This document shows positions 2,635-47,807 of a DNA stretch of 51,647 bases, piece after piece; the stretch's first letter is position 1, and each line of letters starts with the position of its first letter. The position numbers and the translations under genes were made by a program. The notes under the pieces are model-generated. The model saw only the letters and a list, made by a program, of their open reading frames with translations, ran no database searches and was not told where the DNA came from. This DNA comes from Patescibacteria group bacterium (GTDB taxonomy: Bacteria; Patescibacteriota; Minisyncoccia; UBA6257; GWB1-50-10). The DNA lies in assembly GCA_040757555.1 (NCBI GenBank), contig JBFLWN010000001.1, positions 119,128 to 170,774 on the forward strand. The letters run 5' to 3'.

Positions 2635-3690
2635 ATGAAGATTCTCGCTATAGAAACATCGTGTGACGATACTGCAATTGCACTTATAGAGGCGTCCGGC
2701 ACAACGTCCGCACCAAAATTCAAAGTTCTGAAAAGTATCATATCATCGCAAATTGAAGTGCATCGCCCGTGGGGCGGTGTGGTTCCTAACCTCGCAAAAC
2801 GAGAGCACATCAAAAATCTTCCAAAGATTTTTGATAAGTTAAAAATTAAAGGTGAAAAATTAAAAATTGATGCAATCTGTGTCACTGTGGGGCCCGGACT
2901 TGAACCAGCACTTTGGGCGGGAATCACTTTTGCAGAAGAAATATATAAAAAACTGAAAACTGAAAATAAAAAAATGAAGCTTATTGGGATAAATCACCTC
3001 GAGGGACACCTCTACAGTTTTTTGCTTTCGCAAAAAACCAAAACATCAATTTCCAATTCTCAATTTTCAAATAAAACTAAAAATAATTTCCCTGCAATTG
3101 CGCTTATTGTAAGTGGTGGACACACCATTCTTCTTCATATGCAGTCACCAATAAAATGGAAAAAACTTGGGGAGACAAAAGATGATGCGGTGGGAGAATC
3201 GTTTGATAAAGTGGCAAAAATGCTTGGATTTCCTTACCCTGGCGGACCCGAAATACAACGCCTTGCGGAAAAAGGGAATGTAAACGCCATACGATTCCCC
3301 CGTCCAATGATCGGCTCAAAAGATTATAACTTCAGTTATTCGGGGCTTAAAACTTCAGTACTGTATTATCTTCGTGATAATGCAAAAACAAAAAAAGAAG
3401 ATGTGGCTGCAAGTTTTCAAGAAGCGGCACTCGATGTACTCATAAAAAAAACCGAGCGGGCAGCACGTGAATATGGAGTAAAATCAATTTTTCTTTCCGG
3501 TGGTGTTGCGGCAAATAAGGAGCTTCGAAAAAAATTAACAGTGTTAAGTTCAAAATTAAAAATTAATTTTATTGCTCCTCCAATGGACTTCAACACTGAC
3601 AATGCGGTGATGATTGCCGTTGCGGGATATATGAGTATGCTCCGCAAAAAGAACAAAAAACTTATTGCGAACGGAAACATGGGGATATAA
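2635..3690 (+). CDS. tsaD: tRNA t6A37 threonylcarbamoyltransferase TsaD
   Basis: MKILAIETSCDDT start (moved from 2509 in the track); GPGL, NHLEGH, VSGGHT, DDAVGESFDKVA, GGVAAN and TDNAVMIA motifs. Confidence 0.97.
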   Translation: MKILAIETSCDDTAIALIEASGTTSAPKFKVLKSIISSQIEVHRPWGGVVPNLAKREHIKNLPKIFDKLKIKGEKLKIDAICVTVGPGLEPALWAGITFAEEIYKKLKTENKKMKLIGINHLEGHLYSFLLSQKTKTSISNSQFSNKTKNNFPAIALIVSGGHTILLHMQSPIKWKKLGETKDDAVGESFDKVAKMLGFPYPGGPEIQRLAEKGNVNAIRFPRPMIGSKDYNFSYSGLKTSVLYYLRDNAKTKKEDVAASFQEAALDVLIKKTERAAREYGVKSIFLSGGVAANKELRKKLTVLSSKLKINFIAPPMDFNTDNAVMIAVAGYMSMLRKKNKKLIANGNMGI

Positions 3691-3723
3691 CATCAAAATG
3701 CCGTTCGACCTTGTTGTGTTATA
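3686..3723 (-). repeat. 38-bp dyad site, copy 1 (reverse orientation); overlaps the tsaD stop codon
   Basis: Minus strand reads TATAACAC-AACAAGG-TCG-AA-CGG-CATTTTG-ATGTTATA. Confidence 0.85.
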
Positions 3724-3728
3724 AAAGT

Positions 3729-3757
3729 AAAATTCTCCGCGTTCGACGGAGAATTTT
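3729..3757. terminator. Bidirectional terminator-like hairpin
   Basis: AAAATTCTCCG-N7-CGGAGAATTTT between the convergent tsaD and 3760..4014. Confidence 0.75.
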
Positions 3758-3759
3758 TT

Positions 3760-4014
3760 TTAGCCAAAAAATAAATATGCATACCACCCTGCCACGACAA
3801 CCGCAATAACAATTGTTCCGAAACTTATTCCTATCCACACCTCACCCCTCTTTTGATCTTTATATTCTCCCGTGAGAACGTAAAGATTATAAAAGAAACC
3901 AAGACAAAGTATCGAGGCGGCAAAAATAGTAAGCATCGGAAAATTAACAATGTTCGCAGCAATAAAAAGTGCGCCATAAAAGAAAAAGGCGAGTAAAAAA
4001 CCGAAAAGTTTCAT
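3760..4014 (-). CDS. Small hypothetical membrane protein (3 TM)
   Basis: Start moved to ATG 4014 (MKLFGFLL), which follows AGGAGG; hydrophobic throughout. Confidence 0.65.
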   Translation of the reverse strand: MKLFGFLLAFFFYGALFIAANIVNFPMLTIFAASILCLGFFYNLYVLTGEYKDQKRGEVWIGISFGTIVIAVVVAGWYAYLFFG

Positions 4015-4133
4015 AAAACCTCCTATAACGATAATGTAAATAATCCTATATTCAGAAAAGCACCAAAGAGAGGGGCGGTCAATATCACAAAAACCCTTCA
4101 TTTTTTCTATACAATAGGGCTATAATAATACAC

Positions 4134-6266
4134 ATGGAACTTATTACTGGGGCATACGAACCGAAGGAAACTGAATCTAAAATATACGAACAGTGGGAAC
4201 AATCCGGGTATTTTAATCCGGACAATCTTTCTGTGGAGAAAGACGCAAAAAATTATATTGTTTACATGCCACTCCCCAACGTAACGGGAACACTCCATAT
4301 GGGGCATGCACTGAATAACACTATTCAGGATATCGTTATTCGCTATCATCGAATGAATGGATATAGAACACTCTGGCTTCCCGGCACCGATCACGCGGGT
4401 ATCGCGACACAATATGTGGTCGAAAAAGAGTTGAAGAAAAAAGGAATAAGCCGTTTTGAACTTGGACGCGAAAAATTTATCGAAAAAGTATGGGAATGGA
4501 AAAACCAGTATGGGAACACCATTATTAGCCAATTAAAAAAACTCGGGGTTTCGTGTGATTGGTCTCGCATTCGATTCACTATGGATGAAGCATATGCAAA
4601 AGATATTCAAAATGCGTTTGTGCATTATCACGAAAAAGGGTTTCTCTATCGTGGAAAACGCGTGGTAAACTGGTGCCCACGATGTGGCACAAGTCTCTCT
4701 GAACTTGAGCTTGAATATAAAGATGAAAAATCAAAACTCTGGTACATAAAATATCCCCTCACGGACAAAACGGGATATGTGGTTGTCGCTACCACGCGAC
4801 CGGAAACAATGTTGGGTGATACTGCGGTTGCGGTAAATCCAAAAGATGAACGATATAAAAACTTAGTTGGAAAAACACTTCTTCTTCCGATTATGCATCG
4901 CGAAATCCCCATTATTACCGACGATGCGATTGATATGGAATTTGGTACGGGAGCAGTAAAAGTCACCCCCGCACACGATATGGTTGATTTTGAAATAGGG
5001 GAACGACACACACTTGAAGTAATACAAGTGATTGATGAACGCGGGAAAATGAATGAAAGCGCGGGAATATATAACGGGATGAAAGCGGAAGAGGCGCGGG
5101 GAAAAATTATTGAAAAATTAAAAGAAGAGGGACTTCTCGAAAAAGAGGAGGAGTATGATCATCGTGTGGCAATTTGTTATCGGTGTGGGCACGTAATTGA
5201 ACCAATCCCCTCACTTCAATGGTTTTTAAAAATGAATGATCTCGCAAAAAATGCACTCGACGCCGTCAAATCAGGAAAAGTAAAAATTATTCCTAATAAC
5301 TTCGAAAAGAAATATTTCGATTGGCTCGAAAATATTCGCGATTGGACAATTTCGCGTCAGATTTGGTGGGGGCACCGTCTGCCGGTTTGGTTTTGTACAA
5401 ATCAACAAACCACAGAAAATTATATTGTTTCAATCGAAAAACCAGACACGTGTCCGTTTTGTAAAAACTGTGATATGGAACAAGCCCCCGATGTGTTGGA
5501 TACGTGGTTTTCTTCGGCGCTCTGGCCATTTGCGGGGCTTTCCGAATCAGATCTCAAAAACTATTATCCGGGAACAACACTTATCACCGCGCGGGATATT
5601 TTGAATCTCTGGGTAGCACGCATGATTTATTCGGGAATAGAATTTAAAAAAGAACTTCCGTTCATGAATGTATTCATCAATGGCACCATACTCACCAAAG
5701 ATGGAAAGCGCATGTCAAAAAGTTTGGGTACCGGCATCGATCCATTAAAATATATTGACCAATATGGAGCGGATGCCACGCGGTTTGGAATTATGTGGCA
5801 AGCAAACGGACAAGATATTCGGTGGGACGAAACCGCAATTACCGCAGGAAAAAAATTCGCAAATAAATTGTGGAATGCATCGAGGTTTGTATTGCAACAA
5901 ACTGAACACTTAAAACAAAAACCCGGAGATATCACCCCCATTACGGAAGCGGATAAAAAAATTCTCGGGGCACTTGGAGAAATAAAGAAAAGCGTAAAGA
6001 AAGATATCGAAGAATTTGAATTTTCAAAACCACTTCACAATGCATATGATTTCTTTTGGCATGAATTTTGTGATGTATACCTCGAAACATCAAAAGAACA
6101 GATAAAAGACGAAAAACTATCCGAAAACACAAAAACGATACTTCTTCACGTCCTCCTCTCGTCGCTTAAAATATTTCACCCATTTATCCCGTTTGTGACA
6201 GAAGAAATCTATTCCTATATTCCACTTGAAAATAAAAAGAAATATCTCATGATTGAAGAGTGGTAA
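4134..6266 (+). CDS. valS: Valine--tRNA ligase (short form without the C-terminal coiled coil)
   Basis: PNVTGTLHMGHA (HIGH), GTDHAGIATQ, ATTRPET, ISRQIWWGH and RMSKS; 710 aa. Confidence 0.97.
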   Translation: MELITGAYEPKETESKIYEQWEQSGYFNPDNLSVEKDAKNYIVYMPLPNVTGTLHMGHALNNTIQDIVIRYHRMNGYRTLWLPGTDHAGIATQYVVEKELKKKGISRFELGREKFIEKVWEWKNQYGNTIISQLKKLGVSCDWSRIRFTMDEAYAKDIQNAFVHYHEKGFLYRGKRVVNWCPRCGTSLSELELEYKDEKSKLWYIKYPLTDKTGYVVVATTRPETMLGDTAVAVNPKDERYKNLVGKTLLLPIMHREIPIITDDAIDMEFGTGAVKVTPAHDMVDFEIGERHTLEVIQVIDERGKMNESAGIYNGMKAEEARGKIIEKLKEEGLLEKEEEYDHRVAICYRCGHVIEPIPSLQWFLKMNDLAKNALDAVKSGKVKIIPNNFEKKYFDWLENIRDWTISRQIWWGHRLPVWFCTNQQTTENYIVSIEKPDTCPFCKNCDMEQAPDVLDTWFSSALWPFAGLSESDLKNYYPGTTLITARDILNLWVARMIYSGIEFKKELPFMNVFINGTILTKDGKRMSKSLGTGIDPLKYIDQYGADATRFGIMWQANGQDIRWDETAITAGKKFANKLWNASRFVLQQTEHLKQKPGDITPITEADKKILGALGEIKKSVKKDIEEFEFSKPLHNAYDFFWHEFCDVYLETSKEQIKDEKLSENTKTILLHVLLSSLKIFHPFIPFVTEEIYSYIPLENKKKYLMIEEW

Positions 6267-6273
6267 TGCCTTT

Positions 6274-6993
6274 ATGCTTTTTTTAACCCTCATTCTTACC
6301 CTCCTCTGTGCATGCATCCCGAGCATTGTGTGGCTTCTCTTTTTCTTGCGTGAAGATGCGCGTCCAGAGCCCAAACGACTCATCCTTTATACATTTGGGG
6401 CGGGGGCGTTTGTAAGTCTTTTTGTACTCGTTGTCCAATATATATTTCAACAATCGGTGATTGAACTCGGGGGAAGTATTATTGTTCTCATCATGGGATT
6501 GGCACTTGTGGAAGAACTATTTAAATTTATCGCGGCATATTGGGCAATAGACAAAGATAAAGCCTTTAATGAACCGGTTGATGCTATGATTTACATGATT
6601 GTTGCCGCACTCGGATTTGCAACAGTAGAAAATTTATTTGTGCTCGGTAATTCATTCAGTGTTATTAATCTTGCGTCGTTTTCGGTCGTCACCACCACAC
6701 TCCTTCTCAGATTCATCGGTGCTACACTCCTCCACAGTATTTCGTCTGCGCTTGTTGGGTTTTATTGGGCAAAAGGAAAACTACTGCAAAAAAAGAAAAA
6801 ATTCATTTTTATTGGTATTCTCTTTGCGACACTTATTCACGGAACATTTAATTATCTCATTGAATATTTTCAGGACAGAAATCTCCTTGTGTATCCGAGT
6901 ATATTCCTTCTTATCACTCTGTTTTTTATCTTTATCGACTTCGAAAAATTGAAGGAAATTTGGAAAAACAAATATCCTCGAGAAACAATATAG
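6274..6993 (+). CDS. PrsW-family intramembrane metalloprotease
   Basis: EELFKF, GFATVEN, LLHS and HGTFN motifs; multi-pass membrane protein. Likely start is MLFLTL at 6274. Confidence 0.85.
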   Translation: MLFLTLILTLLCACIPSIVWLLFFLREDARPEPKRLILYTFGAGAFVSLFVLVVQYIFQQSVIELGGSIIVLIMGLALVEELFKFIAAYWAIDKDKAFNEPVDAMIYMIVAALGFATVENLFVLGNSFSVINLASFSVVTTTLLLRFIGATLLHSISSALVGFYWAKGKLLQKKKKFIFIGILFATLIHGTFNYLIEYFQDRNLLVYPSIFLLITLFFIFIDFEKLKEIWKNKYPRETI

Positions 6994-7012
6994 TCTGTGT
7001 TATACTGGGGGT

Positions 7013-7462
7013 ATGGAAGAAATAAATAAAGATAATATTTTTGTTGAACTTGCAAAAGTGCGAAGCCAACCCGCACCAATTGCAATAGATACTGAAGATG
7101 ATTTTTCAAATGACATTTCCGATGAGGAAGTGGAGGGACAACTTACTGTTGATGTGTATCAGGATAAAGACAATGTGGTAGTGCAATCGACTGTCGCGGG
7201 GGTGAATCCGGATGAATTGGAAGTGAATATCACCAACGAATCAATCACTATCCGCGGAAAAAGGGAAAGAACCGAAAAAATTGAAGAAAAAAATTATTTC
7301 TATCAGGAATGTTTTTGGGGAAAATTTTCCCGCTCAATTATACTTCCCGTTGAAGTAGATCCGGAAAGCTCTGTGGCAACATTAAAAAATGGGGTATTGA
7401 TGGTGGTTATGCCAAAATCAACAAAGAGGAAGGCAAAAAAACTGAAAGTAAAACTTGATTAA
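7013..7462 (+). CDS. Hsp20/alpha-crystallin small heat-shock protein
   Basis: LTVDVYQ, ITIRGKRE, ECFWGKFSRSIILP and ATLKNGVL. Confidence 0.92.
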   Translation: MEEINKDNIFVELAKVRSQPAPIAIDTEDDFSNDISDEEVEGQLTVDVYQDKDNVVVQSTVAGVNPDELEVNITNESITIRGKRERTEKIEEKNYFYQECFWGKFSRSIILPVEVDPESSVATLKNGVLMVVMPKSTKRKAKKLKVKLD

Positions 7463-7489
7463 AAAAACTCCCCATGATGGGGAGTTTTT
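7463..7489. terminator. Bidirectional terminator-like hairpin
   Basis: AAAAACTCCCC-ATGAT-GGGGAGTTTTT between convergent genes. Confidence 0.8.
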
Positions 7490-7493
7490 ATAA

Positions 7494-7856
7494 TTATCCT
7501 ACTGTTATACCAAAAAAATCATTAAATTTCATTCCCGATTTGAAATACTTCCGCTCAAGGTATTCCACCTCATCCATGTGATATTCGTGATCCGGATCAG
7601 TACCCAAAATCTCGGGTAATAGATTTTCCGCCCGCAAAACCACACTTCTTCCAAATTCACGTTTATTCTCAGGAAATTGTACCCTAAGAATAACTTCACA
7701 ACATATAAGAAATGACTGTTCCTCTCCAAATGCGGGCACATTAAGATGCCTCATCACCATATCGGCTTTTTTATAATCCGGAATAGGATGAAGCGGATAA
7801 TTTGGAAATAAGATGTGAAAAGCCTCACTGATGGGGCACACCCTTTTCTTCGGCAT
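7494..7856 (-). CDS. Hypothetical protein
   Basis: 120 aa with a TAAGGAG SD; directly downstream of murD; no recognised motif. Confidence 0.6.
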   Translation of the reverse strand: MPKKRVCPISEAFHILFPNYPLHPIPDYKKADMVMRHLNVPAFGEEQSFLICCEVILRVQFPENKREFGRSVVLRAENLLPEILGTDPDHEYHMDEVEYLERKYFKSGMKFNDFFGITVG

Positions 7857-7873
7857 TTTTCTCTCCTTAGTGG

Positions 7874-9795: not shown

Positions 9796-9834
9796 ATATA
9801 CAAAATACCAGAAAACCGGGTTATTCGATATAAG

Positions 9835-9914: not shown

Positions 9915-10268
9915 ATGAAAAATGCGTTTTTATTTATTTTTATCTCAGTAATTCTTTTTTCAGTTTCCGGATGTTTCAAAAAAGTCCCGGAAAAGGAGTT
10001 AAACAGAAATGCGGTAAGTGCAATGGAAAAGACACTTTCCATCGACAGCGCACAGTACAAAGGACGTTCATTTACTGTTGTCCTGAAGGAGAAAGCATCT
10101 CCTATAGCAAAATCCTTTCTTCTGAAAGACTCGGATAAAAATTTTATCATTCGTATTTTTACCGAAAAGGATATCGCTGAAGGAGATAAAATAAGTGGCA
10201 ATTCTTTGCAAGTGTTAAAATACCAAATGTCGAATACTTCGACAACGAGTTATTTTGTTTTTTATTAA
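9915..10268 (+). CDS. Hypothetical lipoprotein
   Basis: MK, hydrophobic stretch and VSGC lipobox; GGAG SD. Confidence 0.65.
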   Translation: MKNAFLFIFISVILFSVSGCFKKVPEKELNRNAVSAMEKTLSIDSAQYKGRSFTVVLKEKASPIAKSFLLKDSDKNFIIRIFTEKDIAEGDKISGNSLQVLKYQMSNTSTTSYFVFY

Positions 10269-10299
10269 AAATTAATAATAACCAAAACGGGAGTACATT

Positions 10300-10692
10300 A
10301 TGAAACGCTTTTCTTTATTATTTGTCTTAGTTGTTGCACTAATTTCTTTTTCCACCTCCACTGCTCAAACCCACTCAAAATTCATACAGAAATGTATCGA
10401 AAAGCACGCTGGGTTTTCCTGGGGTGTCGGCCTTGATAAAGAAATGAAAGAGTTTGAATGGTTCGCGTTTTACAACAGTGATGGTTACTATCAAATGGAA
10501 TTATCACGAAAACTAAAACCAACCGAAGTTGAAGAAATCTCGGAATGTGTCATTGAATATAGTGGCTCTTGGATTGGAATCGGCGGATTCGACGACTGGA
10601 GTAAAAAAGGAATTATAAAAACTGCAAAAAAATATAACAAACTACTCTCGGACAAGGTATTTAAAAAACTGAGAGTGGTAGAATATTTCTAG
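10300..10692 (+). CDS. Hypothetical secreted protein
   Basis: Signal-peptide-like N-terminus (MKRFSLLFVLVVALISFSTSTA); GGGAG SD. Confidence 0.65.
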   Translation: MKRFSLLFVLVVALISFSTSTAQTHSKFIQKCIEKHAGFSWGVGLDKEMKEFEWFAFYNSDGYYQMELSRKLKPTEVEEISECVIEYSGSWIGIGGFDDWSKKGIIKTAKKYNKLLSDKVFKKLRVVEYF

Positions 10693-10704: not shown

Positions 10705-10734
10705 AAAAGTGGCACCAATAAGTGTGCCACTTTT
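10705..10734. terminator. Terminator-like hairpin
   Basis: AAAAGTGGCAC-N8-GTGCCACTTTT after 10692. Confidence 0.75.
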
Positions 10735-10746
10735 TCACATCTTAGA

Positions 10747-10784
10747 TATAACATAATATTATCGAACGATATTTTTGTGTTATA
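10747..10784 (+). repeat. 38-bp dyad site, copy 2
   Basis: TATAACAT-AATATTA-TCG-AA-CGA-TATTTTT-GTGTTATA, lying between two terminator hairpins. Confidence 0.85.
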
Positions 10785-10797: not shown

Positions 10798-10819
10798 ACC
10801 CCTCCGGAAAAGGAGGGGT
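10798..10819 (-). terminator. Terminator-like hairpin of hppA
   Basis: ACCCCTCC-N6-GGAGGGGT with a T-tract on the minus strand. Confidence 0.7.
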
Positions 10820-22323: not shown

Positions 22324-23540
22324 TTGGTTCTAAATTGTTTGCAAAGTTTTTTTACTTCTCCACGAATTATCGACTCAGATTGTTTTTTCAATAGTGTGTA
22401 GGAAATTAAACGCGCAATCATCCTCATTTCTCTTTCTTTCATTCCGCGAGTGGTAAGTGCTGGAGTTCCGAGACGAATTCCTGATGGGTTGGTGGGTTTT
22501 TGTGTATCGTAAGGAATTGTGTTTTTATTCACAATAATTCCGACACCTTCCAACAAATCACTTGCCTTGCCTCCACTCATTCCTTTTTCCATTATATCAA
22601 CCAAAAATAGGTGTGAATCGGTGCCACCAGCAATAATTCTCCATCCAAGTTTTTTAAGTTCTTCCGCAAGTGCCCTCGCATTTTTCACTACTTGTTTTGA
22701 ATATGCTTTAAATTGATTTGTGTCGGCCTCGCGTAATGCAATTCCGATTGCCGCAATTGTATTCATATGTGGTCCACCCTGGAGTCCCGGAAAAACAATT
22801 TTGTTAATTTGTGAAGAAAACTCTTTTTTCGAAAAAATAAGTGCTGCTCGCGGACCGCGAAGTGTTTTGTGTGTGGTGGTGGTTACGACATCGGCATATT
22901 TGAACGGGGATGGATATGCGCCCCCCGCAACAAGTCCTGCAAAATGCGACATATCCACCATAAATATCGCCCCCACTGTATCTGCAATGTTCCTCATTTT
23001 TTTGAAATCAATAATTCTCGCATACGCACTTCCCCCCGCGATAATAAGTGCCGGTTTTTCTTTTTTCGCAATTTTCAAAACTTCATCATAATTTATCTTC
23101 TCGGTTTTTTTATCCACTCCGTAGGGAACTTGCTTCCATAGCTTTCCCGTCACACTTGCACGATATCCGTGGGTGAGATGACCACCCATATCGAGTGCCA
23201 TTGCCATAATTTTTGAACCAACGGGAATGAGTGCGTGATACACCGCAATATTTGCGGGGGATCCGGAATATGGTTGCACATTCACATCCCACGTCTTTGA
23301 AGAAATTTTAAATAGTTTTAATGCACGCGATTGTACCAACTCTTCAAGTTCGTCCACGTGCTTATTACCTGCATAATAACGCGCTCGCGGATATCCCTCA
23401 GCGTATTTATTGGTAAATACACTTGCCAGGGCCTCGCGCACACTTAGCGAAACATAATTTTCTGAAGCGATAAGATTCAACGTCTCATTTTCGCAGGTCT
23501 CTTCATTTTTAATAAGTTTTTGTATTTGTTTATCTTTCAT
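22320..23540 (-). CDS. glyA: Serine hydroxymethyltransferase
   Basis: LIASEN, NKYAEGYP, GGHLTHG, TTTTHKTLRGPR, QGGP and SGIRLGT. Confidence 0.98.
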   Translation of the reverse strand: MKDKQIQKLIKNEETCENETLNLIASENYVSLSVREALASVFTNKYAEGYPRARYYAGNKHVDELEELVQSRALKLFKISSKTWDVNVQPYSGSPANIAVYHALIPVGSKIMAMALDMGGHLTHGYRASVTGKLWKQVPYGVDKKTEKINYDEVLKIAKKEKPALIIAGGSAYARIIDFKKMRNIADTVGAIFMVDMSHFAGLVAGGAYPSPFKYADVVTTTTHKTLRGPRAALIFSKKEFSSQINKIVFPGLQGGPHMNTIAAIGIALREADTNQFKAYSKQVVKNARALAEELKKLGWRIIAGGTDSHLFLVDIMEKGMSGGKASDLLEGVGIIVNKNTIPYDTQKPTNPSGIRLGTPALTTRGMKEREMRMIARLISYTLLKKQSESIIRGEVKKLCKQFRTK

Positions 23541-23656
23541 CCCGTTAGAGGTAGATCGCGATCAGCGCACGACCCACTTTTTAAAAATTCGACTATCGTA
23601 TGTTATAAAAACATCACTAACAAACCCTTATCCCGCGATCGCGACCTCTAACGGGA
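23540..23656. mobile_element. MITE-like element A (117 bp) with 13-bp terminal inverted repeats
   Basis: TCCCGTTAGAGGT (23540-23552) / ACCTCTAACGGGA (23644-23656); non-coding interior. Mobility is inferred. Confidence 0.55.
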
Positions 23657-23694
23657 CAAGTACGTTTTTAATTTACTCCAAAATAAAACAGAAA

Positions 23695-23723: not shown

Positions 23724-24347
23724 TTAAAACGGATATGATTTTTTTAACGCGAGGTATATTTTATAACTTCTATTACCCCACGTTTCAAAACCAAGAGATT
23801 TTAAGGTATCGTGTAGCGTCCAAAAATTCCTTTCTGCTACTTCCTCTTTCCTTTCTATCTCTGTAAGTTCCTTCAGTAGTTCGCTGATTTCTTCGCGCGT
23901 GAAAATATTTCTTTTATCCTCTTTTTCTTTGTTTTCTTTTCTAAATTCCTTCTCTAATTCATATGTGCGATCAAGCTCCTCGGCTCGTTTTTTTAAAACC
24001 TGATCAAAAAGTTTTTGATAGTGTTTTACAAAACCATCTTGTCCAAGTTCTTTTTGTTTTTCTTCGAGACAAAGAAAAATCTGAAACGCACCATCAGAAA
24101 TATTCGGAATTTCTTTATGGAGATTTCTTGCTTCATCTCCATCACATATAAACTTGGAAAAATAGTAAGACTCAATCTCTTTTGCAAAAAGATCAAGTGG
24201 GTTTTTATCAACCCTATCTTCTTTTTTTGTATTTTCATCCTTTTTTGTTTTCCTTTTGAGGGGATGAAAATATGTAAAAATTGAAAAAGTAATTTGTAGC
24301 AGAACAAGAAAAATAAAAGCGTAAGAAACTAATTGATTCTGAAACAT
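23724..24347 (-). CDS. Hypothetical membrane-anchored coiled-coil protein
   Basis: N-terminal TM, Glu/Lys-rich helices and an AAGGAGG SD. Confidence 0.7.
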   Translation of the reverse strand: MFQNQLVSYAFIFLVLLQITFSIFTYFHPLKRKTKKDENTKKEDRVDKNPLDLFAKEIESYYFSKFICDGDEARNLHKEIPNISDGAFQIFLCLEEKQKELGQDGFVKHYQKLFDQVLKKRAEELDRTYELEKEFRKENKEKEDKRNIFTREEISELLKELTEIERKEEVAERNFWTLHDTLKSLGFETWGNRSYKIYLALKKSYPF

Positions 24348-24435: not shown

Positions 24436-24464
24436 ATTATACCACCTTATCTACCAAGTGTCAA
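24436..24464 (-). promoter_or_regulatory. Consensus sigma70 promoter
   Basis: TTGACA-N17-TATAAT with GGTGG immediately before the -10. Confidence 0.8.
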
Positions 24465-24508: not shown

Positions 24509-24546
24509 CATAACACAATACCGCCGAACGGCGATATTGTGTTATA
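24509..24546 (+). repeat. 38-bp dyad site, copy 3
   Basis: CATAACAC-AATACCG-CCG-AA-CGG-CGATATT-GTGTTATA; this copy can also fold as a near-perfect hairpin. Confidence 0.85.
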
Positions 24547-24677
24547 TATAAACCTATTTTTAATTTTAATAAAACAAAAGCGGGACGTAGGCCATAATAA
24601 GACCTAAAACAAGAATTCCCACTACAATACTCACCAATACTCTATGTTTTTTTCCCATATATAGATATTATACCAAG

Positions 24678-27370: not shown

Positions 27371-27445
27371 GCGCGCGTAGCTCAATGGTAGAGCAATCGT
27401 CTTATACACGATCGGTTCCAGGTTCGAATCCTGGCGCGCGCACCA
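27371..27445 (+). tRNA. tRNA-Ile (anticodon UAU), CCA encoded
   Basis: Full cloverleaf: GCGCGCG/CGCGCGC, GCTC/GAGC, ATCGT-CTTATAC-ACGAT, CCAGG-TTCGAAT-CCTGG, A73 and CCA. Identity is taken from the anticodon only. Confidence 0.85.
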
Positions 27446-36512: not shown

Positions 36513-36857
36513 ATGATTAAAAAAATTAAAAATAGCTCAATGTTCTTTTTTTCTGCACTCTTTCTTCTGTGCGCCGAAGTATCTCATGCGGCGGCAACAA
36601 TTGGGCTTCAAAATCCACTAAAAGTTGGATCAATTCCCGATCTTATCTATGTGGTCATTGATTGGTTTGTTATTGCGGTTGGTCCTGCAATCGCGGTTAT
36701 TATCATCATCTATGGTGGATTTCAAATACTCACCGCAGGGGGAGACCCAAAAAAATTTGAAACAGGAAAACAGGCGATTCTTTATGCGGTGGTTGGGTAT
36801 GGTATAATTCTTCTTGCAGAAGGAGTGGTGTTGATTATACAAAAACTCCTTCAGTAA
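36513..36857 (+). CDS. VirB2/TrbC-like pilin 2
   Basis: LQNPL, IIYGGFQILTAGGDPKK and YAVVG. Confidence 0.82.
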   Translation: MIKKIKNSSMFFFSALFLLCAEVSHAAATIGLQNPLKVGSIPDLIYVVIDWFVIAVGPAIAVIIIIYGGFQILTAGGDPKKFETGKQAILYAVVGYGIILLAEGVVLIIQKLLQ

Positions 36858-36926
36858 AAGGATAAGAAAGGTCGATTTTTTATCTATTTTTATCGTTAAA
36901 CAGTCGTAAAAAATTATTTATTTATT

Positions 36927-37283
36927 ATGAAATCATTCTTAAAAAAGTGGGGATTAGTTTCAGTTCTTTCATTGGTTATTTTAGCTCCTGTAGTTGTTTC
37001 GGCTCAATTTGATGTCCCTGGTGAGAAATTGCCAGCTCCTAAATTCCAGACGTATGGAGGAGCAATTTCGTTAGTAGAGAAGGCATCAAACTGGCTTCTT
37101 TATGTCATTATTGCGCTTGCGGTTGTCTTTATTATATATGCAGGATTCTTGTATCTCACCTCGGGAGGAGACGAAGATAAAACAAAAGCAGCAAAGAATT
37201 ACATTGTGTATGCAGTCATCGGTATCGCCATTGCGCTTCTCGCACGTGGTATCGTGCTTCTCGCGAAAAACTTTATTGGCTAA
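36927..37283 (+). CDS. VirB2/TrbC-like pilin 3
   Basis: IIYAGFLYLTSGGDEDK and YAVIG. Confidence 0.82.
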   Translation: MKSFLKKWGLVSVLSLVILAPVVVSAQFDVPGEKLPAPKFQTYGGAISLVEKASNWLLYVIIALAVVFIIYAGFLYLTSGGDEDKTKAAKNYIVYAVIGIAIALLARGIVLLAKNFIG

Positions 37284-37301
37284 TAGGGTTATACCTACAT
37301 C

Positions 37302-37658
37302 ATGAAAAAAACTATTTGGACAATTTTTTCTTCTTTTACTGCTCTATTACCAACCCTTGTATATGGAGCAACTCCATCATTACTTGATGCACCTCCCGGA
37401 TCTATAGTAACAAACAGTGGTGCAGAAGGTGTTATGGCACTCATGAGAAAAACCGGGGGATGGTTATATAGTGCCGTCCTTGCAATATCAGTTATTCTTA
37501 TGATCTACGGAGGATTTCTTTATGTCACCTCGGGAGGAGACGAAGATAAAGTGAAAGATGGAAAAAATTACATCATTTACGGAGTTGTTGGTATTGCGGT
37601 AGCGACACTTGCAACAGGAATAGTGATGGTTGTTGGAAAATTTTTGGGATCAAAATAA
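37302..37658 (+). CDS. VirB2/TrbC-like pilin 4
   Basis: MIYGGFLYVTSGGDEDK and YGVVG. Confidence 0.82.
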   Translation: MKKTIWTIFSSFTALLPTLVYGATPSLLDAPPGSIVTNSGAEGVMALMRKTGGWLYSAVLAISVILMIYGGFLYVTSGGDEDKVKDGKNYIIYGVVGIAVATLATGIVMVVGKFLGSK

Positions 37659-37667
37659 GAAATTCTT

Positions 37668-37997
37668 ATGAAAAGATATCTTTATACCCTCATTGCTTTT
37701 TTTCTTCCCTTGTTGGCACTAGCACAAGAAAGACAACCAAAAACGAGCATCACTACCCCAGAAAAAGTAATTGCACTTATTGACAAAGCAGGAGGGTGGT
37801 TCTATAGCGCTCTTATTGGAATTGCAGTGATTTATATTATCTATGCTGGCTTCAAATTTTTAACCGCTGGTGGAGATGAAAAAAAAATAGAAGAAGCGAG
37901 ACAACAGTTAATCTATGCAATTATTGCCGTTGCGGTTGCGATGCTTGCAACAGGAATAGTGAAAGTGATGAAACAATTCCTTGGAGTAACAAATTAA
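37668..37997 (+). CDS. VirB2/TrbC-like pilin 5
   Basis: IIYAGFKFLTAGGDEKK and YAIIA. Confidence 0.82.
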   Translation: MKRYLYTLIAFFLPLLALAQERQPKTSITTPEKVIALIDKAGGWFYSALIGIAVIYIIYAGFKFLTAGGDEKKIEEARQQLIYAIIAVAVAMLATGIVKVMKQFLGVTN

Positions 37998-42166: not shown

Positions 42167-42199
42167 GGTCTTTGGATTGGTGGTGGAAACACAAAAAAG

Positions 42200-42233
42200 A
42201 AAAAACTATTCACTTTTTGGTGAGTAGTTTTTT
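42200..42233 (+). terminator. Terminator-like hairpin after pnp
   Basis: AAAAAACTATTCAC-N6-GTGAGTAGTTTTTT with one G-U pair. Confidence 0.65.
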
Positions 42234-42282
42234 TACCACAGACCAATCCCCATACCGCGCGCTCTGTGATATAATAGATGCA

Positions 42283-43443
42283 ATGGACGAAAAAAATAAT
42301 TTTGGCCAACAACAATGGCCCACCCCGCAAAATCAAAATGCGGATACCGCGAGGTCGCAGTTTTTGGGAACAGGAGAGGGAGAAGTTCCTCTTGCAAAAA
42401 TGCCATCCGACAAAATTGATGTTCGGACAATGGCTTCTGACGCGATGTCGATGCAAGAAACAGGAGGAGGAATGCCAAGGCCCTACACCCCACAAGCCCA
42501 AACTACCGCGCCAAAGGAAACCCCAGCACCTTCAAAACCAACACCACCATCACAATCCCCGGTTAATTTTGCCGATCAAATGATGGGAGGAATAACACAA
42601 ATTAACCAACAAGCACCAAAAACAGCACCACAACCCGCAAAAAAGAGTGGTGGTCGCGGCCTTTTTTGGACCCTACTTATTGTTATTGTTGTACTTGGAC
42701 TTATCGCTGTCGGATACTTTTTTGTATATCCACAATTATTCACAAAAGGTGATGTGGAAAAAACCACAGAGGTTATCAATCCACCAACAACTCCACCCGA
42801 AGAAGTGGTAAATATCCCTCCTACCCCTCCGGTTGAAACCCCCACAACAACACCTCCCGTCGTTGTTCCTCCGTCGGTCTCAACTGTCGATGTACATGCA
42901 TCATTCTTTAAAACAAAAGCAGATCTTGTGTTTGATGCAAAGCTTTCGGCTTTCACATTAGATGACTTGAAGAAACCAATCGCATTTGAGACAACGTCGG
43001 TTCCTCTTTTTAAAGAGGTGGTGTGGAAAACACAAGAAAATAAACCACTTTCATTTTCTCAGATTGCCTCCCTTATATTCCCGAATTTTTTTACCACCGA
43101 AAAAGTTTCGAATTTTCAGGATGATTTCACATTATTCTCATATTCAAACACAAAGGGGACGTGGCTTGGATTTATTACGAAGTTAAAAGATGGAGTTGAT
43201 GTGGGAGTGATACAAAACAGTATGAATGTACTTCAACAAGACACGGGTCTTAAAAATATCTTTATTTCCGATCCGGGAACAATGAGTCCGTGGAAAGACG
43301 GAAAAGTAAGAAATAAACCAACATCACTTGCTCCATTTTCATTACCGGGCGCAACAATTAGTTACACATGGTTTGATCGATATCTTTTGGTAAGTTCAAA
43401 CCTTGAAGCAGCGGAAGAGGCAGCAAAAAGACTCGGATATTAA
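42283..43443 (+). CDS. Hypothetical single-TM protein with Pro/Thr-rich disordered regions
   Basis: Start moved to MDEKNN (7 nt after TGnTATAAT); one TM and a PPTTPP-rich linker. Confidence 0.75.
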   Translation: MDEKNNFGQQQWPTPQNQNADTARSQFLGTGEGEVPLAKMPSDKIDVRTMASDAMSMQETGGGMPRPYTPQAQTTAPKETPAPSKPTPPSQSPVNFADQMMGGITQINQQAPKTAPQPAKKSGGRGLFWTLLIVIVVLGLIAVGYFFVYPQLFTKGDVEKTTEVINPPTTPPEEVVNIPPTPPVETPTTTPPVVVPPSVSTVDVHASFFKTKADLVFDAKLSAFTLDDLKKPIAFETTSVPLFKEVVWKTQENKPLSFSQIASLIFPNFFTTEKVSNFQDDFTLFSYSNTKGTWLGFITKLKDGVDVGVIQNSMNVLQQDTGLKNIFISDPGTMSPWKDGKVRNKPTSLAPFSLPGATISYTWFDRYLLVSSNLEAAEEAAKRLGY

Positions 43444-43454
43444 TAAAAAATTAT

Positions 43455-43802
43455 ATGAACTTTTCTGAAACACAACTAGAACACTTTGCTAGTATTCTTC
43501 ACGAAGAAGAAGAAAAAATAAACGAAGAATTATCGCGGATAAAAGGCGCCTCATCTGATTTTGGAAATGATGTTGATGGATTCGAAGAAGAAGCCGATGA
43601 GTTTGAAGAAGCAGGAAGTACACTTTCAATCAAAGAAGCACTTGGGGAACGAAAAAAAAGAATAGAAAAAGCACTTAAAAAAATAGATGAAAAAAAATAT
43701 GGAGCATGTGAGTCGTGTGGAAAACAAATAGAAGAAAAACTACTTCTTATTGATCCAGAATCCGAACTTTGTAAAGAGTGCAAAATAGAACAAAAAATGT
43801 AA
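43455..43802 (+). CDS. DksA/TraR-family C4 zinc-finger protein
   Basis: Coiled coil with acidic tip EEADE; YGACESC...ELCKEC. Confidence 0.88.
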   Translation: MNFSETQLEHFASILHEEEEKINEELSRIKGASSDFGNDVDGFEEEADEFEEAGSTLSIKEALGERKKRIEKALKKIDEKKYGACESCGKQIEEKLLLIDPESELCKECKIEQKM

Positions 43803-43810
43803 ACCGTAGT

Positions 43811-45346
43811 ATGCGTGCAGTTCCTAAAATTCTCTCTGCGGAACTCGATGGAATTACTGCCGAATGCATTCAAGTGGAGGCCGATATTAACGTCGGCCTC
43901 CACTCTTTTTCAATTGTCGGACTTGCTGATAAGGCGGTGAGTGAAGCAAAAGAAAGAGTAAACTCGGCATTAAAAAATTCCGGCATACGTCCCCCAACAA
44001 AAGAAAATAGAAGAATCACCATTAATCTTGCTCCAGCAGACATAAAAAAAGCAGGGTCACGATTTGATCTTCCTATCGCACTTGCATATCTTCTCGCAAG
44101 TGAACAAGTAAAAGTTTTTGAAACAAGAGATAAAATATTTGTTGGAGAACTTTCTCTTGATGGATCTCTTCGTCCAATTAGTGGTGGGTTGAATATCGCA
44201 AAACTCGCAAAAAAAATGGGAGTACAATATCTTTTTGTCCCATATGAAAATAGGAATGAAGCGGCAATGCTCGGTGGGGTTACTGTATTCGGAGTAAAAA
44301 ACTTGAATGAACTTATTCATCATCTTGAGGGTACCCACCCACTTAATTCTGAGGAAAAAAAGAGCGTTATTCCAATGCGCCCCCCGACATCTGTTTCTCT
44401 CTCAGAAGTGAAAGGACAGGAATCGGCAAAGCGTGCGCTCACTATCGCGGCAGCAGGAGGGCATAACATTCTTATGTCGGGACCACCCGGCACGGGAAAG
44501 ACCATGCTCGCTCAGGCACTTGCATCAATACTTCCATATCCCTCACATGATGAAATGATTGAGATCACTGAAATTTATAGCGCGGCGGGACTTACCACCC
44601 ACGATCAAATCATTCAATGGAGACCATTCCGTTCGCCACACCATACCGCGTCACTCATTTCAATAATCGGCGGGGGAACAATTCCGAAACCCGGAGAAAT
44701 CAGTCTTGCCCACCGAGGGGTTTTATTCCTGGATGAAATGCCAGAATTCCATAAAGATACACTCGAGGGACTCCGACAACCACTTGAAAATGGACACGTG
44801 CATATTGCACGTGCAAAAAAAGCATTGATATTTCCGGCGAGATTTATGCTCGTTGCCGCAATGAACCCATGTCCGTGCGGATATTTTGGAGATACCGTGA
44901 AAGAGTGCAAGTGTACGGCACACGAAATATTGCGATATCAAAGAAAAATATCGGGGCCACTTCTCGATCGAATAGATTTACAACTCGAGGTTCCGAGAAT
45001 ACCAATCGAAGAGTTGAGAAAAAAGAGTGGGAATATTGAAGAAGAAGAACAAATAAGAAAAAAAATTCTCGATGCACGGAAAATTCAGAATGAACGCGCA
45101 ACCAATGCCCATGTTTCTGCCCACACAAATTCAGAATTTTCGTCAAAACAAGTTGATGAATTTTTCTCTCTTGATCCGCTAGCAGAAACTTTCTTAAAAA
45201 ACATTCTTGAACGATCATTCATCTCTCCGCGCGGATATTATCGTATTTTAAAGGTTGCGCGCACCATCGCCGATATTGAGACCTATCCGGTAATAAAAAA
45301 AGAACACCTTGCTGAGGCGTTCCAATATAGGGTGAAAGAGGGGTGA
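43811..45346 (+). CDS. comM: ComM/YifB Mg-chelatase-like AAA+ ATPase
   Basis: [46 protein letters not shown] and DRID. Confidence 0.93.
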   Translation: MRAVPKILSAELDGITAECIQVEADINVGLHSFSIVGLADKAVSEAKERVNSALKNSGIRPPTKENRRITINLAPADIKKAGSRFDLPIALAYLLASEQVKVFETRDKIFVGELSLDGSLRPISGGLNIAKLAKKMGVQYLFVPYENRNEAAMLGGVTVFGVKNLNELIHHLEGTHPLNSEEKKSVIPMRPPTSVSLSEVKGQESAKRALTIAAAGGHNILMSGPPGTGKTMLAQALASILPYPSHDEMIEITEIYSAAGLTTHDQIIQWRPFRSPHHTASLISIIGGGTIPKPGEISLAHRGVLFLDEMPEFHKDTLEGLRQPLENGHVHIARAKKALIFPARFMLVAAMNPCPCGYFGDTVKECKCTAHEILRYQRKISGPLLDRIDLQLEVPRIPIEELRKKSGNIEEEEQIRKKILDARKIQNERATNAHVSAHTNSEFSSKQVDEFFSLDPLAETFLKNILERSFISPRGYYRILKVARTIADIETYPVIKKEHLAEAFQYRVKEG

Positions 45347-45348
45347 GA

Positions 45349-46470
45349 TTATTTTAAGGCAAAAGGATTTTTTGCTCCCAAGACTTCAAAATGGAGATGA
45401 CACCCAGTGGTTCCTTGTGTGTTTCCCGAGCTCCCTATAAACGCAATGTTCTTTCCCTGAGAAACAACATCTCCTACTTTTACAATATTTTTTAGTGTGT
45501 GCGCATAACGCGTATGTGTTTTGTTTGGATGTTCTATGAGAACATAATTTCCGTATCCTCCATTCCATGACCCATCGGAAGATTCTTCTATCACTACTCC
45601 ATCTGCTGCTGCATAAATACTACTTCCGCACGTATTCGCTATATCAACTGCATTATATTCGTGTAATTTCCCCCAATTCCACCCCTTCGCAGGAAGTATA
45701 AAATAACCGGTAAGTGTGGCAAGATTTTCCTTTTCTGTTTCTTTTTGTGTAGCGAGCCAGGACCCTTCTTTTGTGTATGGAAGAACTAATTTTGCTCCGG
45801 GCGCTTCAAGAAGTTTTGTATATTCTGGGTTATACTTTTTTATAATTTCCTGACTTGCCCCAAGGCGATCTGAAATTTGTTGTAGTGTATCTCCTTTTTG
45901 TATGACATATAACGACCCGGATGTTGGAAGAATTAATAATTCTTGCCCTGTTTTTATTTTTTTTATATGTGCGTTTGAGGCTTGGAGTGTTTCAAGTGTG
46001 ATTCCAAACTGAGCAGCAACACTCGAGAGGGTGTCTCCTTTTTTCATTTTATATTTTCTAATTCCCTCTCTTGCAGAAACGTCACCAATAAGTGCGGGGG
46101 GTACCCCAAAAAAAGAGCTCTCGTCTTTGGAAAGAAAAAGCCCATTGTCACCTTGTTCGTCTTCATAATATGACGCCTGTGCAGTTGAAATAGTACCCAA
46201 TTCACTACCAAGTGATCCGGCGGGCCCTCCAATTCCCCACATATCATATTTTTTGTATGCCGAAAACCATGATCCATCTCCCAAAAAAAGGGTTGTGGAA
46301 CACCCTACGGCAACAAGAAAAAACAACGACCAGAGAGTAGCCGTATTTGAAAAACCCCTTAAAAAAGGCTTTATATGTGAAATAAACGTACTTATAAGGC
46401 CATTATAGCAAAAAACCATAAAAAGGGAACTAAAAAGAAAAAATATACTTATCAACAGAAAATATAACAT
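45349..46470 (-). CDS. LysM + M23 family peptidase (start uncertain)
   Basis: Two LysM repeats (KKGDTLSSVA, QKGDTLQQIS), HEYNAVD, GYGNYV, YAH and GCHLHFEV. Confidence 0.85.
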   Translation of the reverse strand: MLYFLLISIFFLFSSLFMVFCYNGLISTFISHIKPFLRGFSNTATLWSLFFLVAVGCSTTLFLGDGSWFSAYKKYDMWGIGGPAGSLGSELGTISTAQASYYEDEQGDNGLFLSKDESSFFGVPPALIGDVSAREGIRKYKMKKGDTLSSVAAQFGITLETLQASNAHIKKIKTGQELLILPTSGSLYVIQKGDTLQQISDRLGASQEIIKKYNPEYTKLLEAPGAKLVLPYTKEGSWLATQKETEKENLATLTGYFILPAKGWNWGKLHEYNAVDIANTCGSSIYAAADGVVIEESSDGSWNGGYGNYVLIEHPNKTHTRYAHTLKNIVKVGDVVSQGKNIAFIGSSGNTQGTTGCHLHFEVLGAKNPFALK

Positions 46471-46500
46471 ATAACTATCGACCGACTTATAAATGTTATA
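46463..46500 (+). repeat. 38-bp dyad site, copy 4; contains the PaaX-like start codon
   Basis: TATAACAT-ATAACTA-TCG-AC-CGA-CTTATAA-ATGTTATA. Confidence 0.85.
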
Positions 46501-46990
46501 TACTAAACACATCGTGGAACGAATCCAAAATAATTCTCTTTCTACAACCATTCTGAATACCATCTCAAAGACAACGGGAGGGATTTTGTTTTCCGATGTG
46601 TGTAGAGAACACAACGTACAAGAAGAAAACATTCGCGTCACACTCTGGAGACTTGAAAAGCGTGGAATGATAGAAAAAAGGGAAAATAAATATGTTTTAT
46701 CTTCTCTCGGAAAAGATTTTTTTGAAAAAAGAAAACAGCCGAAAAAGTGGGATGGAAAATGGAGAATGATTATATTCGATATCCCCGAATCGGAGCGCAC
46801 AAATCGCATTTGGCTTCGCACACAACTTCTTCGAGCGGAATATCAATCGCTACAACGAAGCATCTACCTCGGAAAAAACCCTCTTCCGGAATTTCTTTTT
46901 GATGAGATAAAAAATCGGAAAATGCTTTCATACATACGAATAATTGTGGCCCAAAACATAATAAAAAATTCGCTTCTCTCTGAGAAATAA
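46493..46990 (+). CDS. PaaX-like protein (winged HTH + Cas2/VapD-like ferredoxin domain)
   Basis: IRVTLWRLEKRGMIE (wHTH), WDGKWRMIIFDIPE and LQRSIYL. Confidence 0.78.
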   Translation: MLYTKHIVERIQNNSLSTTILNTISKTTGGILFSDVCREHNVQEENIRVTLWRLEKRGMIEKRENKYVLSSLGKDFFEKRKQPKKWDGKWRMIIFDIPESERTNRIWLRTQLLRAEYQSLQRSIYLGKNPLPEFLFDEIKNRKMLSYIRIIVAQNIIKNSLLSEK

Positions 46991-46997
46991 TAACTAT

Positions 46998-47807
46998 ATG
47001 GGACAAAAACTAGGACAACATTTTTTAAAAAACAAAAAAATACTCCACACAATAGCAGGGATAGTTGAATCGCGTGCGGACGAAACCCTGATTGAGGTGG
47101 GCCCGGGACACGGAGAATTAACCGAAAAACTCAAGACACAAAACGCAAAATGCAAAATTATTGCAATAGAAAAGGACAAAATACTTGCCGAACAATTGGA
47201 GAAAAAATTTGAAAAAGATAAAAATATAAAAATTATGTGCGGTGATGCGCTTTTACTACTTCCTGAAATTGTTAAAAAAATTCGTGGAAATTATATCGTT
47301 GTTGGAAACATTCCTTACTACATCACTGGATATTTATTTCGAACAATCCAAGAATTAAAAAAAAGACCAACTCGTACAGTGGTGATGATACAAAAAGAAG
47401 TTGCAGAACGCATTGTGAAAAAATCGCCCCAGATGAATTTACTCGCGGCAAGTGTTCAATATTGGGCTGATCCAAAAATTATAATGAACGTATCAAAAAA
47501 AGAATTTTCCCCACAACCAAAAATCGATTCCGCGGTGATTGAACTTTATACAAAAAAAACACACCTGAAAAACAATGGGGGAGTAGAAAAAAAATATTAC
47601 AATACACTCAATATATTATTCAAACAACCGAGAAAAACAATTAAAAATAATATAACACTATCATACCGAACGGCTAGAGGGTGTAATACCCAAGAAAAGG
47701 TGGTGTTAAAACAAATAGAAGAAATTAGTGTTCATGCCGAGGGAAGACCACAAGATTTGAGAATTGAGGAAATAAAAAAAATCGCACAAATTATACACCC
47801 CAAATAA
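46998..47807 (+). CDS. rsmA: 16S rRNA dimethyltransferase RsmA/KsgA
   Basis: LGQHFL, EVGPGHG, GNIPYYIT, QKEVAER and PQPKIDSAV. Confidence 0.95.
   Translation: MGQKLGQHFLKNKKILHTIAGIVESRADETLIEVGPGHGELTEKLKTQNAKCKIIAIEKDKILAEQLEKKFEKDKNIKIMCGDALLLLPEIVKKIRGNYIVVGNIPYYITGYLFRTIQELKKRPTRTVVMIQKEVAERIVKKSPQMNLLAASVQYWADPKIIMNVSKKEFSPQPKIDSAVIELYTKKTHLKNNGGVEKKYYNTLNILFKQPRKTIKNNITLSYRTARGCNTQEKVVLKQIEEISVHAEGRPQDLRIEEIKKIAQIIHPK
47651..47688 (+). repeat. 38-bp dyad site, copy 5; in frame inside rsmA
   Basis: TATAACAC-TATCATA-CCG-AA-CGG-CTAGAGG-GTGTAATA. Confidence 0.8.

Follow-up and report, generated by a model that had tools for sequence, protein, structure and literature searches.

Wide palindromic sites and a short PaaX-like protein as a candidate regulatory pair in a Patescibacteria genome

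A stretch of 51,647 nucleotides (nt) from a Patescibacteria group bacterium (contig JBFLWN010000001.1, positions 119,128 to 170,774), referred to here as the window, carries five copies of one wide dyad of 38 base pairs (bp). Which protein reads these sites, and to what end? Comparison with related genomes points to a gene of the window itself, at 46493-46990, which encodes a short PaaX-like protein of 165 amino acids (aa). With a probability of roughly 0.68, the five dyads are predicted to be specific double-stranded DNA sites of this protein. That the protein and the dyads belong together in some way is very probable on the comparative evidence, and transcriptional autoregulation, along with control of a small regulon, is probably their main function. 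The sites, the gene and two further features on which the argument leans are as follows.

3686-3723, match on the minus strand: site 1; its outer box supplies the stop codon of tsaD, and a terminator then follows at 3729-3757
10747-10784: site 2, between the terminators of convergent genes, those of an orphan pair (about 10709-10735) and of hppA (10798-10819)
24509-24546: site 3, 19 bp after a 30-codon open reading frame (ORF; 24566-24658, minus strand) and 44 nt upstream of the -35 box of an orphan promoter
46463-46500: site 4, in the short divergent region between a LysM/M23 gene and the PaaX-like gene, overlapping the first ATG of the PaaX-like ORF
47651-47688: site 5, within the final ~50 codons of ksgA/rsmA; the next gene begins 122 bp further on
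46493-46990, plus strand: PaaX-like gene, 165 aa, winged helix and Cas2-like domain; the proposed binder
23590-23607, minus strand: isolated half-site in a strongly structured leader, about 50 bp ahead of the start of glyA
24436-24464, minus strand: promoter of the orphan 23724-24347, with the consensus TTGACA-17-TG-n-TATAAT (12/12), downstream of site 3

Five dyad sites of fixed layout

The window was scanned with the pattern YATAACAY-N7-YCGAMCGR-N7-RTGTWATA, a layout of 8-7-8-7-8. Five exact matches were obtained, all of them where a preliminary description of this DNA had placed them, and the pattern gave 0 matches across 100 dinucleotide-preserving shuffles. When up to 3 mismatches were allowed, no new site appeared in the window, just the opposite strands of the same five. 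A relaxed scan of the window (at most 3 mismatches in the outer boxes and at most 1 in the centre), for which 1.2 matches were expected, did not find a sixth copy either.

The spacing is as invariant as had been claimed. The window contains 19 ATAACA and 22 TGTWAT hexamers, and they face each other at a gap of 24 only (gaps 10-39 were tested) and at the five dyads only. The half-site near glyA, also reported earlier, is an exact half-pattern; its significance is borderline, with ~0.08 expected per window. Further half-sites are no more frequent in the window than in random sequence. The contexts first given for copies 1-4 were found to be correct on re-inspection, while the position of site 5 had been left undescribed.

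The PaaX-like protein and its predicted sites

The proposed binder matches the Pfam family PaaX_M (E=1.6e-16). Its AlphaFold2 model (mean predicted local distance difference test score of 80) has a winged helix-turn-helix (wHTH) and a ferredoxin-like domain, and the best fold matches found by Foldseek in the PDB are E. coli PaaX (8a39) and Rv0674 (3kfw), and then Lrp/AsnC regulators and Cas2. The model shows the order of an N-terminal winged helix followed by a Cas2-like domain, and the WDGKW motif is nearly invariant among 79 members of the family. The Cas2-like domain keeps the Cas2 signature (WDGKWR-hhh-FDIPE, R105, R109 and Q121xS123, again nearly invariant). D96, the Asp at the end of beta1 that is a hallmark of Cas2, is D in 78/79 members, whereas E. 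coli PaaX and Rv0674 have lost it.

The C-terminal helical effector domain of PaaX is missing, as the protein ends after its Cas2-like domain. For this reason, and because its score against the NCBI PaaX equivalog TIGR02277 (28.7 bits, with 28-42 in the family) lies far under the cut-off of 264.55, the protein is not a true PaaX. Against the NCBI cas2 model TIGR01573 the window protein scores 18.8, and some members reach up to 32.5 bits, over the cut-off of 24.5. The family comprises 4,983 clusters at 50% identity (E<=1e-10), the best 150 being 118-239 aa long. The true start of the gene in the window may be the GTG at 46514. The Lrp/AsnC (feast/famine) regulators, next in fold likeness, are often autoregulated and have global roles; they differ in sequence family, and nothing here indicates octamers or ligand binding.

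It was observed that the gene and the sites go together across many relatives. Homologues at 96%, 75% and 46% identity have the same gene order, with one dyad right upstream and a second inside ksgA, at its 3' end; in the 46% relative, a third stands between the PaaX-like gene and ksgA. In 11 other assemblies or contigs, the homologue is immediately preceded by a matching dyad, and the upstream dyad is found, with conserved synteny, in every relative examined, down to ~41-46% protein identity (it is kept in loci L001, L002/L033, L003/L006, L034, L031, L032, L038, L011 and L025). The copy inside ksgA is kept, partly decayed, in every member of the clade with the gene order LysM / PaaX-like / ksgA, and the intragenic position of site 5 recurs in L001, L002, L003, L034, L031, L032 and L038.

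Two wider scans extend this association. The pattern ATAACAY-N7-YCGNNCGR-N7-RTGTWAT was searched in 185,579 species-representative genomes and gave 27 loci, with multi-copy matches only in a few Patescibacteria-type metagenome-assembled genomes (MAGs) and 1-8 strict-pattern copies per genome. A Limosilactobacillus, a Fluviicola and a gammaproteobacterial MAG gave single matches, probably by chance. By a hidden Markov model of the PaaX-like protein, the gene was found to adjoin the site in six more of the 27 loci (five MAGs). A metagenome scan seeded with the protein alignment gave 80 diverse loci, and the 72 that were non-identical and had enough flank were counted. Here, a 36-bp palindrome (at least 15/18 pairs, within 280 bp upstream or 160 bp after the stop) stands upstream of the gene in 25/72 loci and after its stop in 34/72 (40/72 by a relaxed rule), against a background of 11 in 367 kb elsewhere in the same loci. 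The common form is a bracket, with a palindrome of ~36 bp just upstream and another 0-14 bp after the PaaX-like stop codon, and most lineages show only these two gene-flanking copies within +/-4 kb. Sites 4 and 5 are the family's usual bracket, widened here to enclose the PaaX-like gene and ksgA.

The boxes themselves are specific to the lineage. The outer boxes read ATAACA, ATAGCA, ATTACA, GTAACA, TATACC, TACTACA or GTCCTCAA, the centres read CGATCG, CGGCCG, CTATAG, CATATG, CCATGG or GCGGCCGC, and both copies within one locus carry common boxes. Homologues with the same recognition helix have the same boxes, and those with different helices have different boxes. Such co-variation is what one expects when a DNA-binding protein evolves together with the sites it binds. 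Since the boxes track its recognition helix across lineages, the PaaX-like protein is the likely binder. It had been proposed as a candidate in the preliminary description, and synteny, bracket and co-variation all agree with that proposal. The pairing of PaaX-like protein and palindrome recurs in bacteria of the candidate phyla radiation (CPR), and full-text literature searches returned no description of it there.

How might a small protein read so wide a site? Cas2 dimers, one part of a molecular ruler, are known to lie along double-stranded DNA. The PaaX-like protein would dimerise via its Cas2-like domain, as do PaaX and Cas2, and one dimer would lie along one 38-bp dyad. The two winged helices would read the outer TATAACAY boxes, whose centres are ~31 bp apart, with the Cas2-like dimer core over the central YCG-NN-CGR box. 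The dimer body would then act as a ruler, which may be why sites of changing sequence all keep to 36-38 bp throughout the family. Site 4, covering the promoter or start region of the PaaX-like gene itself, would mediate self-repression. Site 5 would be its downstream bracket partner, and could either join site 4 in a DNA loop or act on the downstream cluster as a control or insulating element. Sites 1-3 would be extra conserved sites at transcription-unit boundaries, for which regulation at a distance, looping, roadblock and insulation are candidate roles.

There is a precedent for this kind of operator, as E. coli PaaX, which binds TGATTC-N27-GAATCA, is a repressor of its own promoter (PMC9493321). 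E. coli PaaX, the best fold match, also combines a winged helix with a Cas2-like dimerisation domain. Its operator has two inverted 6-bp boxes about three helical turns apart, spanning 39 bp in E. coli and 36-38 bp here. In the layout ATAACA-N24-TGTTAT, a copy is present at the gene start in all relatives, and the promoter predicted to be targeted is likewise the gene's own. The earlier statement that no motif of such architecture has been described is roughly right, the PaaX operator being a close analogue that it had missed. The two systems differ in several respects. The C-terminal domain for the ligand phenylacetyl-CoA is absent here, and no paa genes lie nearby, while the Cas2 Asp signature that PaaX lost is kept. 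The sites here also have a conserved central box, a tendency to be palindromic over their whole length and a second, bracketing copy. Within the wide-dyad operator logic of the PaaX type, the new elements would be a protein of minimal wHTH-Cas2 form, a site of three boxes that is palindromic throughout, and a bracket around the gene.

Pairing of the spacer arms

The N7 segments between the boxes had been described as mostly unpaired. This proved incorrect, as 2-6 of the 7 positions pair in the window's sites, and 64% of them are complementary over 110 unique related sites chosen without looking at the seven middle positions, against 34% (standard deviation 1.6%) when the arms were exchanged between sites. 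Pairing is bimodal, with 38/110 sites being perfect palindromes. The orthologues of site 3 show compensatory double changes, AACATCG/CGATGTT in one genome (FK3.bin69, locus L017) and AACACTG/CAGTGTT in another (WY5.bin86, locus L008). The own-promoter sites of the window's clade are the least symmetric, with 0-3/7 N7 pairs, yet they are the best conserved; their right arm has a conserved CTTATAAATG, which may hold promoter or start signals.

Paired arms might mean that the copies act as RNA hairpins in transcripts, be it as terminators, 3' stabilisers or 5' leader structures. Many copies would indeed fold very stably, the upstream copies in L011 and L040 start about at the predicted transcript start, and some copies in FK3.bin121 and L020 have A-run/T-run flanks. 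However, mismatches on the sense strand comprise 31 G.T and 32 A.C, so that G.U-compatible ones are not in excess. Sites 1 and 2 have separate canonical terminators, with site 2 lying between two, and the box sequence tracks a DNA-binding helix. No Rfam family was found; a search of the whole window at the gathering threshold, and of the site 3 region at E<=1, gave only tRNAs and sub-threshold noise. A role as RNA hairpin is therefore hardly to be expected. Because there is no G.U-type bias, and because some copies are probably untranscribed, the arm co-variation is read as a DNA-level effect. The earlier preference for a double-stranded DNA protein site over an RNA hairpin is borne out by the same mismatch counts.

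At the level of DNA, the pairing could come either from neutral homogenisation or from a functional hairpin or cruciform. Long quasi-palindromes can be homogenised neutrally through template switching. The functional alternative proposes that the wHTH-Cas2-like protein recognises extruded hairpins or cruciforms, in single-stranded or supercoiled DNA, and that its Cas2-type active site nicks or cuts them, so that palindrome, gene and palindrome make up more than a regulator, namely a nuclease module like that of the repetitive extragenic palindromes (REPs) and their REP-associated tyrosine transposases (RAYTs). The co-varying arms with their double changes between L017 and L008, and the 38 perfect 36-bp palindromes among 110 sites, would fit such a module. 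So would the two copies that bracket the gene, of which the second mostly begins 0-14 bp past the stop, and the near-invariance of FDIPE, R105, R109 and Q121xS123 in a family of which some members pass the cas2 cut-off. Nevertheless, we consider it improbable. The barely paired own-promoter sites of the window's clade are the best conserved ones, and neutral template switching could account for the homogenised arms of long quasi-palindromes. The low copy number, the stable orthologous positions and the clade-conserved gene context give no sign of mobility, and the centre is palindromic in most lineages, which a hairpin loop would not need.

Comparison with REP and RAYT systems leads to a similar picture. 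Both have dispersed palindromes of ~35-38 bp, mostly intergenic or near 3' ends, and an associated gene flanked by two copies. Here, however, no HUH/Y1 transposase was seen, the flanked gene encodes a wHTH/Cas2-like protein, and there is no conserved GTAG-type head. Copies number in single digits rather than hundreds, and their positions are stable between species. A REP-like dispersed family, as suggested in the preliminary description, is therefore unlikely.

Cas2 itself offers another comparison. It shares with the protein the ferredoxin-like domain with the signature hhhFDI...R...LQxSV, and its associated repeats are also ~36 bp long and palindromic, whereas the domain is fused to a winged helix here. 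The 25 most frequent Pfam families in each of the two neighbour sets do not include Cas1, and neither a repeat-spacer array nor any other cas gene lies nearby. It is conceivable, though we doubt it, that wHTH-Cas2 proteins and palindromes form an unrecognised, CPR-wide repeat-associated system, in which a Cas2-type site nicks, processes or copies extruded or single-stranded palindromes. The protein would then go beyond a transcription factor with operators and be a stand-alone relative of a CRISPR adaptation protein with its own 'repeats', an idea to which we give equally little weight. It arises because the arm co-variation and the conserved residues of Cas2 catalytic type are left unexplained by a simple operator.

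Gene context and possible function

The setting of the other sites bears on what the PaaX-like protein would do as a regulator. Sites 1-3 lie after terminators, between convergent genes or some way upstream of a promoter. An orthologue of site 1 is present at the tsaD stop in FK3.bin69 (L009 3073-3110), and one of site 2 lies 53 bp after hppA in WY5.bin86 (L010 6819-6856); site 2, flanked by terminators on both sides, is probably not transcribed. Site 3 has orthologues in both genomes (L017 1858-1895 in FK3.bin69 and L008 7420-7457 in WY5.bin86), with arms changed in a compensatory manner, and in L008 a similar 12/12 promoter lies 56 bp from the site. As these positions are kept in genomes whose shared proteins are ~72-97% identical while the N7 segments have drifted, sites 1-3 are under selection and are not recent insertions. 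The 30-codon ORF directly upstream of site 3, MGKKHRVLVSIVVGILVLGLIMAYVPLLFY, is kept in FK3.bin69 and WY5.bin86 and is probably a real small membrane protein overlooked by ORF lists.

Such positions could also mean that the same protein binds for an architectural purpose, marking transcription-unit boundaries or roadblocks or serving a nucleoid- or centromere-like (parS-like) role, and not for promoter control. Many dispersed copies do lie where genes converge or immediately behind intrinsic terminators (sites 1 and 2, and those in L010, L019, L021, L024 and L029). The strict sites concentrate in the region syntenic to the window, with 3/4 in FK3.bin69 and 4/8 in WY5.bin86, an estimate that is biased as the search pattern was derived from the window. 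Plasmid partition provides a parallel, since genes of centromere-binding proteins are flanked there by their own sites. On the other hand, parS sites are 16-bp palindromes clustered near the origin and bound by a ParB-fold protein that has a ParA partner, and despite the concentration in the syntenic region there is no ParA-like, ParB or SMC-like partner among the conserved neighbours here. DnaA boxes are unclustered in every intergenic region of the window, which has no other origin signature, and most lineages have no copies within +/-4 kb besides the two that flank the gene. An architectural purpose is, to our mind, an outside chance. An origin near the orientation switch at ~31 kb was also considered and rejected; the switch adjoins rpsA and gyrA, with no dnaA or dnaN there.

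The preliminary description had favoured recombination or cassette capture, with attC- or dif-like sites used by the Xer-like recombinase of the window. Some differences between genomes agree with this, as the orphan 23724-24347 is absent in FK3.bin69, the orphan pair 9915-10692 is replaced by an ORF of 154 aa in WY5.bin86, and the orphan 23724-24347 has an isolated half-site on its other flank. The placement at 'edges of orphan insertions' is real for copies 1-3; it is unspecific, though, because comparable variable small ORFs occur at boundaries without sites. The only tyrosine recombinase in the window is the Xer-like gene, a syntenic housekeeping gene beside tRNA-Leu/rpsO in all relatives, and the sites co-vary with the PaaX-like protein and not with a recombinase. 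The dif site is 28 bp long with an 11-6-11 layout and occurs once per chromosome, in contrast to five 38-bp copies of 8-7-8-7-8 here. Integron attC sites are imperfect palindromes with extrahelical bases and stand beside intI in a cassette array of one orientation; here many copies are perfect palindromes, they form no array, and no integron integrase is a neighbour. Also, if an ancestral site had simply been split, the half-site near glyA would be expected in the opposite polarity. Recombination thus has very little to recommend it as the purpose of the sites.

This half-site may be a remnant of a full site, and in FK3.bin69 a full site is present 60 bp upstream of glyA. Around the half-site, the minus strand of the window has a long inverted repeat at 23535-23665, CCCGTTAGAGGTCGCGATCGCGGG ... 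GATCGCGATCTACCTCTAACGGG, whose end coincides with the start codon of glyA. The predicted fold of this repeat is of -49.7 kcal/mol (z = -5.1); the repeat is kept in WY5.bin86 (L008), is absent in FK3.bin69, has no Rfam counterpart and may serve glyA-folD as a leader or riboswitch-like element.

The genes around the sites are for the most part of a housekeeping kind. The window, with a base composition of 35-44% G+C and with intrinsic terminators of canonical form, carries tsaD, a class-I aminoacyl-tRNA synthetase, hppA, nusA, ftsH, rpsA, gyrA, the Xer-like recombinase, pnp, comM, the LysM/M23 peptidase, ksgA and genes of a type IV secretion system (T4SS), including four tandem T4SS-pilin-like paralogues at 36513-37997. 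Taken with the close relatives, these features suggest a Saccharibacteria-like CPR bacterium. A 12-mer, ACTTATCAACAG, at 46447-46458 stands 4-6 bp (in L003, at most 9 bp) to the left of site 4, in the divergent region towards the LysM/M23 gene; it is conserved in five genomes (the window, L001, L002, L003 and L032) and includes TTATCAACA, which is DnaA-box-like with one mismatch. Site 5 lies just upstream of an unannotated gene block (47811-51647) that leads, in relatives, into TrbL/PrgI/TraC/VirB4-like genes. A bAvd / 23S-rRNA-IVP gene occurs at two different places of the syntenic region (L002 8468-8830 and L003 18113-18487), and is absent from the window at the place it has in L002, between comM and the LysM/M23 gene. 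Further, a tRNA-Ile with anticodon UAU (27371-27445) adjoins tRNA-Val(UAC). Such a tRNA is an uncommon bacterial way to read AUA, as most bacteria use a lysidine-modified CAU tRNA.

Control of transcription by the PaaX-like protein can be weighed best where its sites meet promoters. The upstream site follows a TTGACA-16/17-TAAAAT promoter at a distance of 5-9 nt in L040 and L011, and the downstream site is directly next to the -35 box of the grpE promoter, with dnaK after grpE, in L037, L040 and L047. A site is found 71 bp upstream of clpP in WY5.bin86, and another 10 bp upstream of rtcB in FK3.bin121. The clpP-upstream dyad is one of two that lie 1.3 kb apart and bracket two small genes (L012 1941-3282), the only place seen where a gene pair that is not PaaX-like is bracketed.

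These contexts invite comparison with HrcA and its CIRCE element (TTAGCACTC-N9-GAGTGCTAA). The likeness is confined to the sister clade (L040 3708-5021; also L037, L043 and L047), where the PaaX-like gene sits between cysS and grpE-dnaK, that is, at the position of hrcA. In L040, one dyad follows the gene's own TTGACA-17-TAAAAT promoter and another abuts the grpE -35 box, so that dyads stand at its own and the grpE promoters; the dyad upstream of clpP in WY5.bin86 is a further point of likeness. The protein fold is unrelated to that of HrcA, and the sites span 36-38 bp as against 27 bp. The chaperone genes of the window, hsp20 and ftsH, have no dyad site. TGTTATA heptamers that flank hsp20 (6998, 7503) were considered as dyads and rejected, the first resembling an extended -10 element. 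Just before hsp20, TGTTATACT at 6996-7004 is extended -10-like (TGnTATAAT-like), and the outer box of the dyad, RTGTTATA, resembles the same element. Some dyad ends could be weak outward promoters as well.

Several observations weigh against operators of the PaaX-like protein as the whole explanation. At site 4, a consensus promoter scan placed no promoter with confidence. A classical operator would have nothing to control at sites 1 and 2, which are enclosed by convergent gene ends or terminators, and site 3 and several sites of relatives lie 1-56 bp upstream of a -35 box and not over the promoter. The neighbours of the dispersed sites (clpP, rtcB, surface proteins, SET/DsbA and glyA-folD) have no common regulon theme. 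The strong co-variation of the N7 arms (0.64 vs 0.34) is not explained by a protein that ignores those arms, and the near-invariant FDIPE...R...R...QxS signature hints at a role beyond dimerisation. No conserved partner gene was found either; the genes on either side of 57-58 homologues are housekeeping genes of many kinds.

The CPR/Patescibacteria have very few recognisable regulators, and their gene control is almost uncharted. Here, a large family, of about 5,000 clusters at 50% identity, is paired with predicted sites that can be read from sequence, lineage by lineage. This pairing makes the regulons, and the code by which a recognition helix specifies its box, directly testable in uncultivated organisms. 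The hrcA position of the gene in one clade and the clpP-upstream site in a relative of the window suggest an alternative stress regulator. Finally, the retention of a Cas2 signature beside palindromic repeats of ~36 bp may bear on the origin of CRISPR adaptation.

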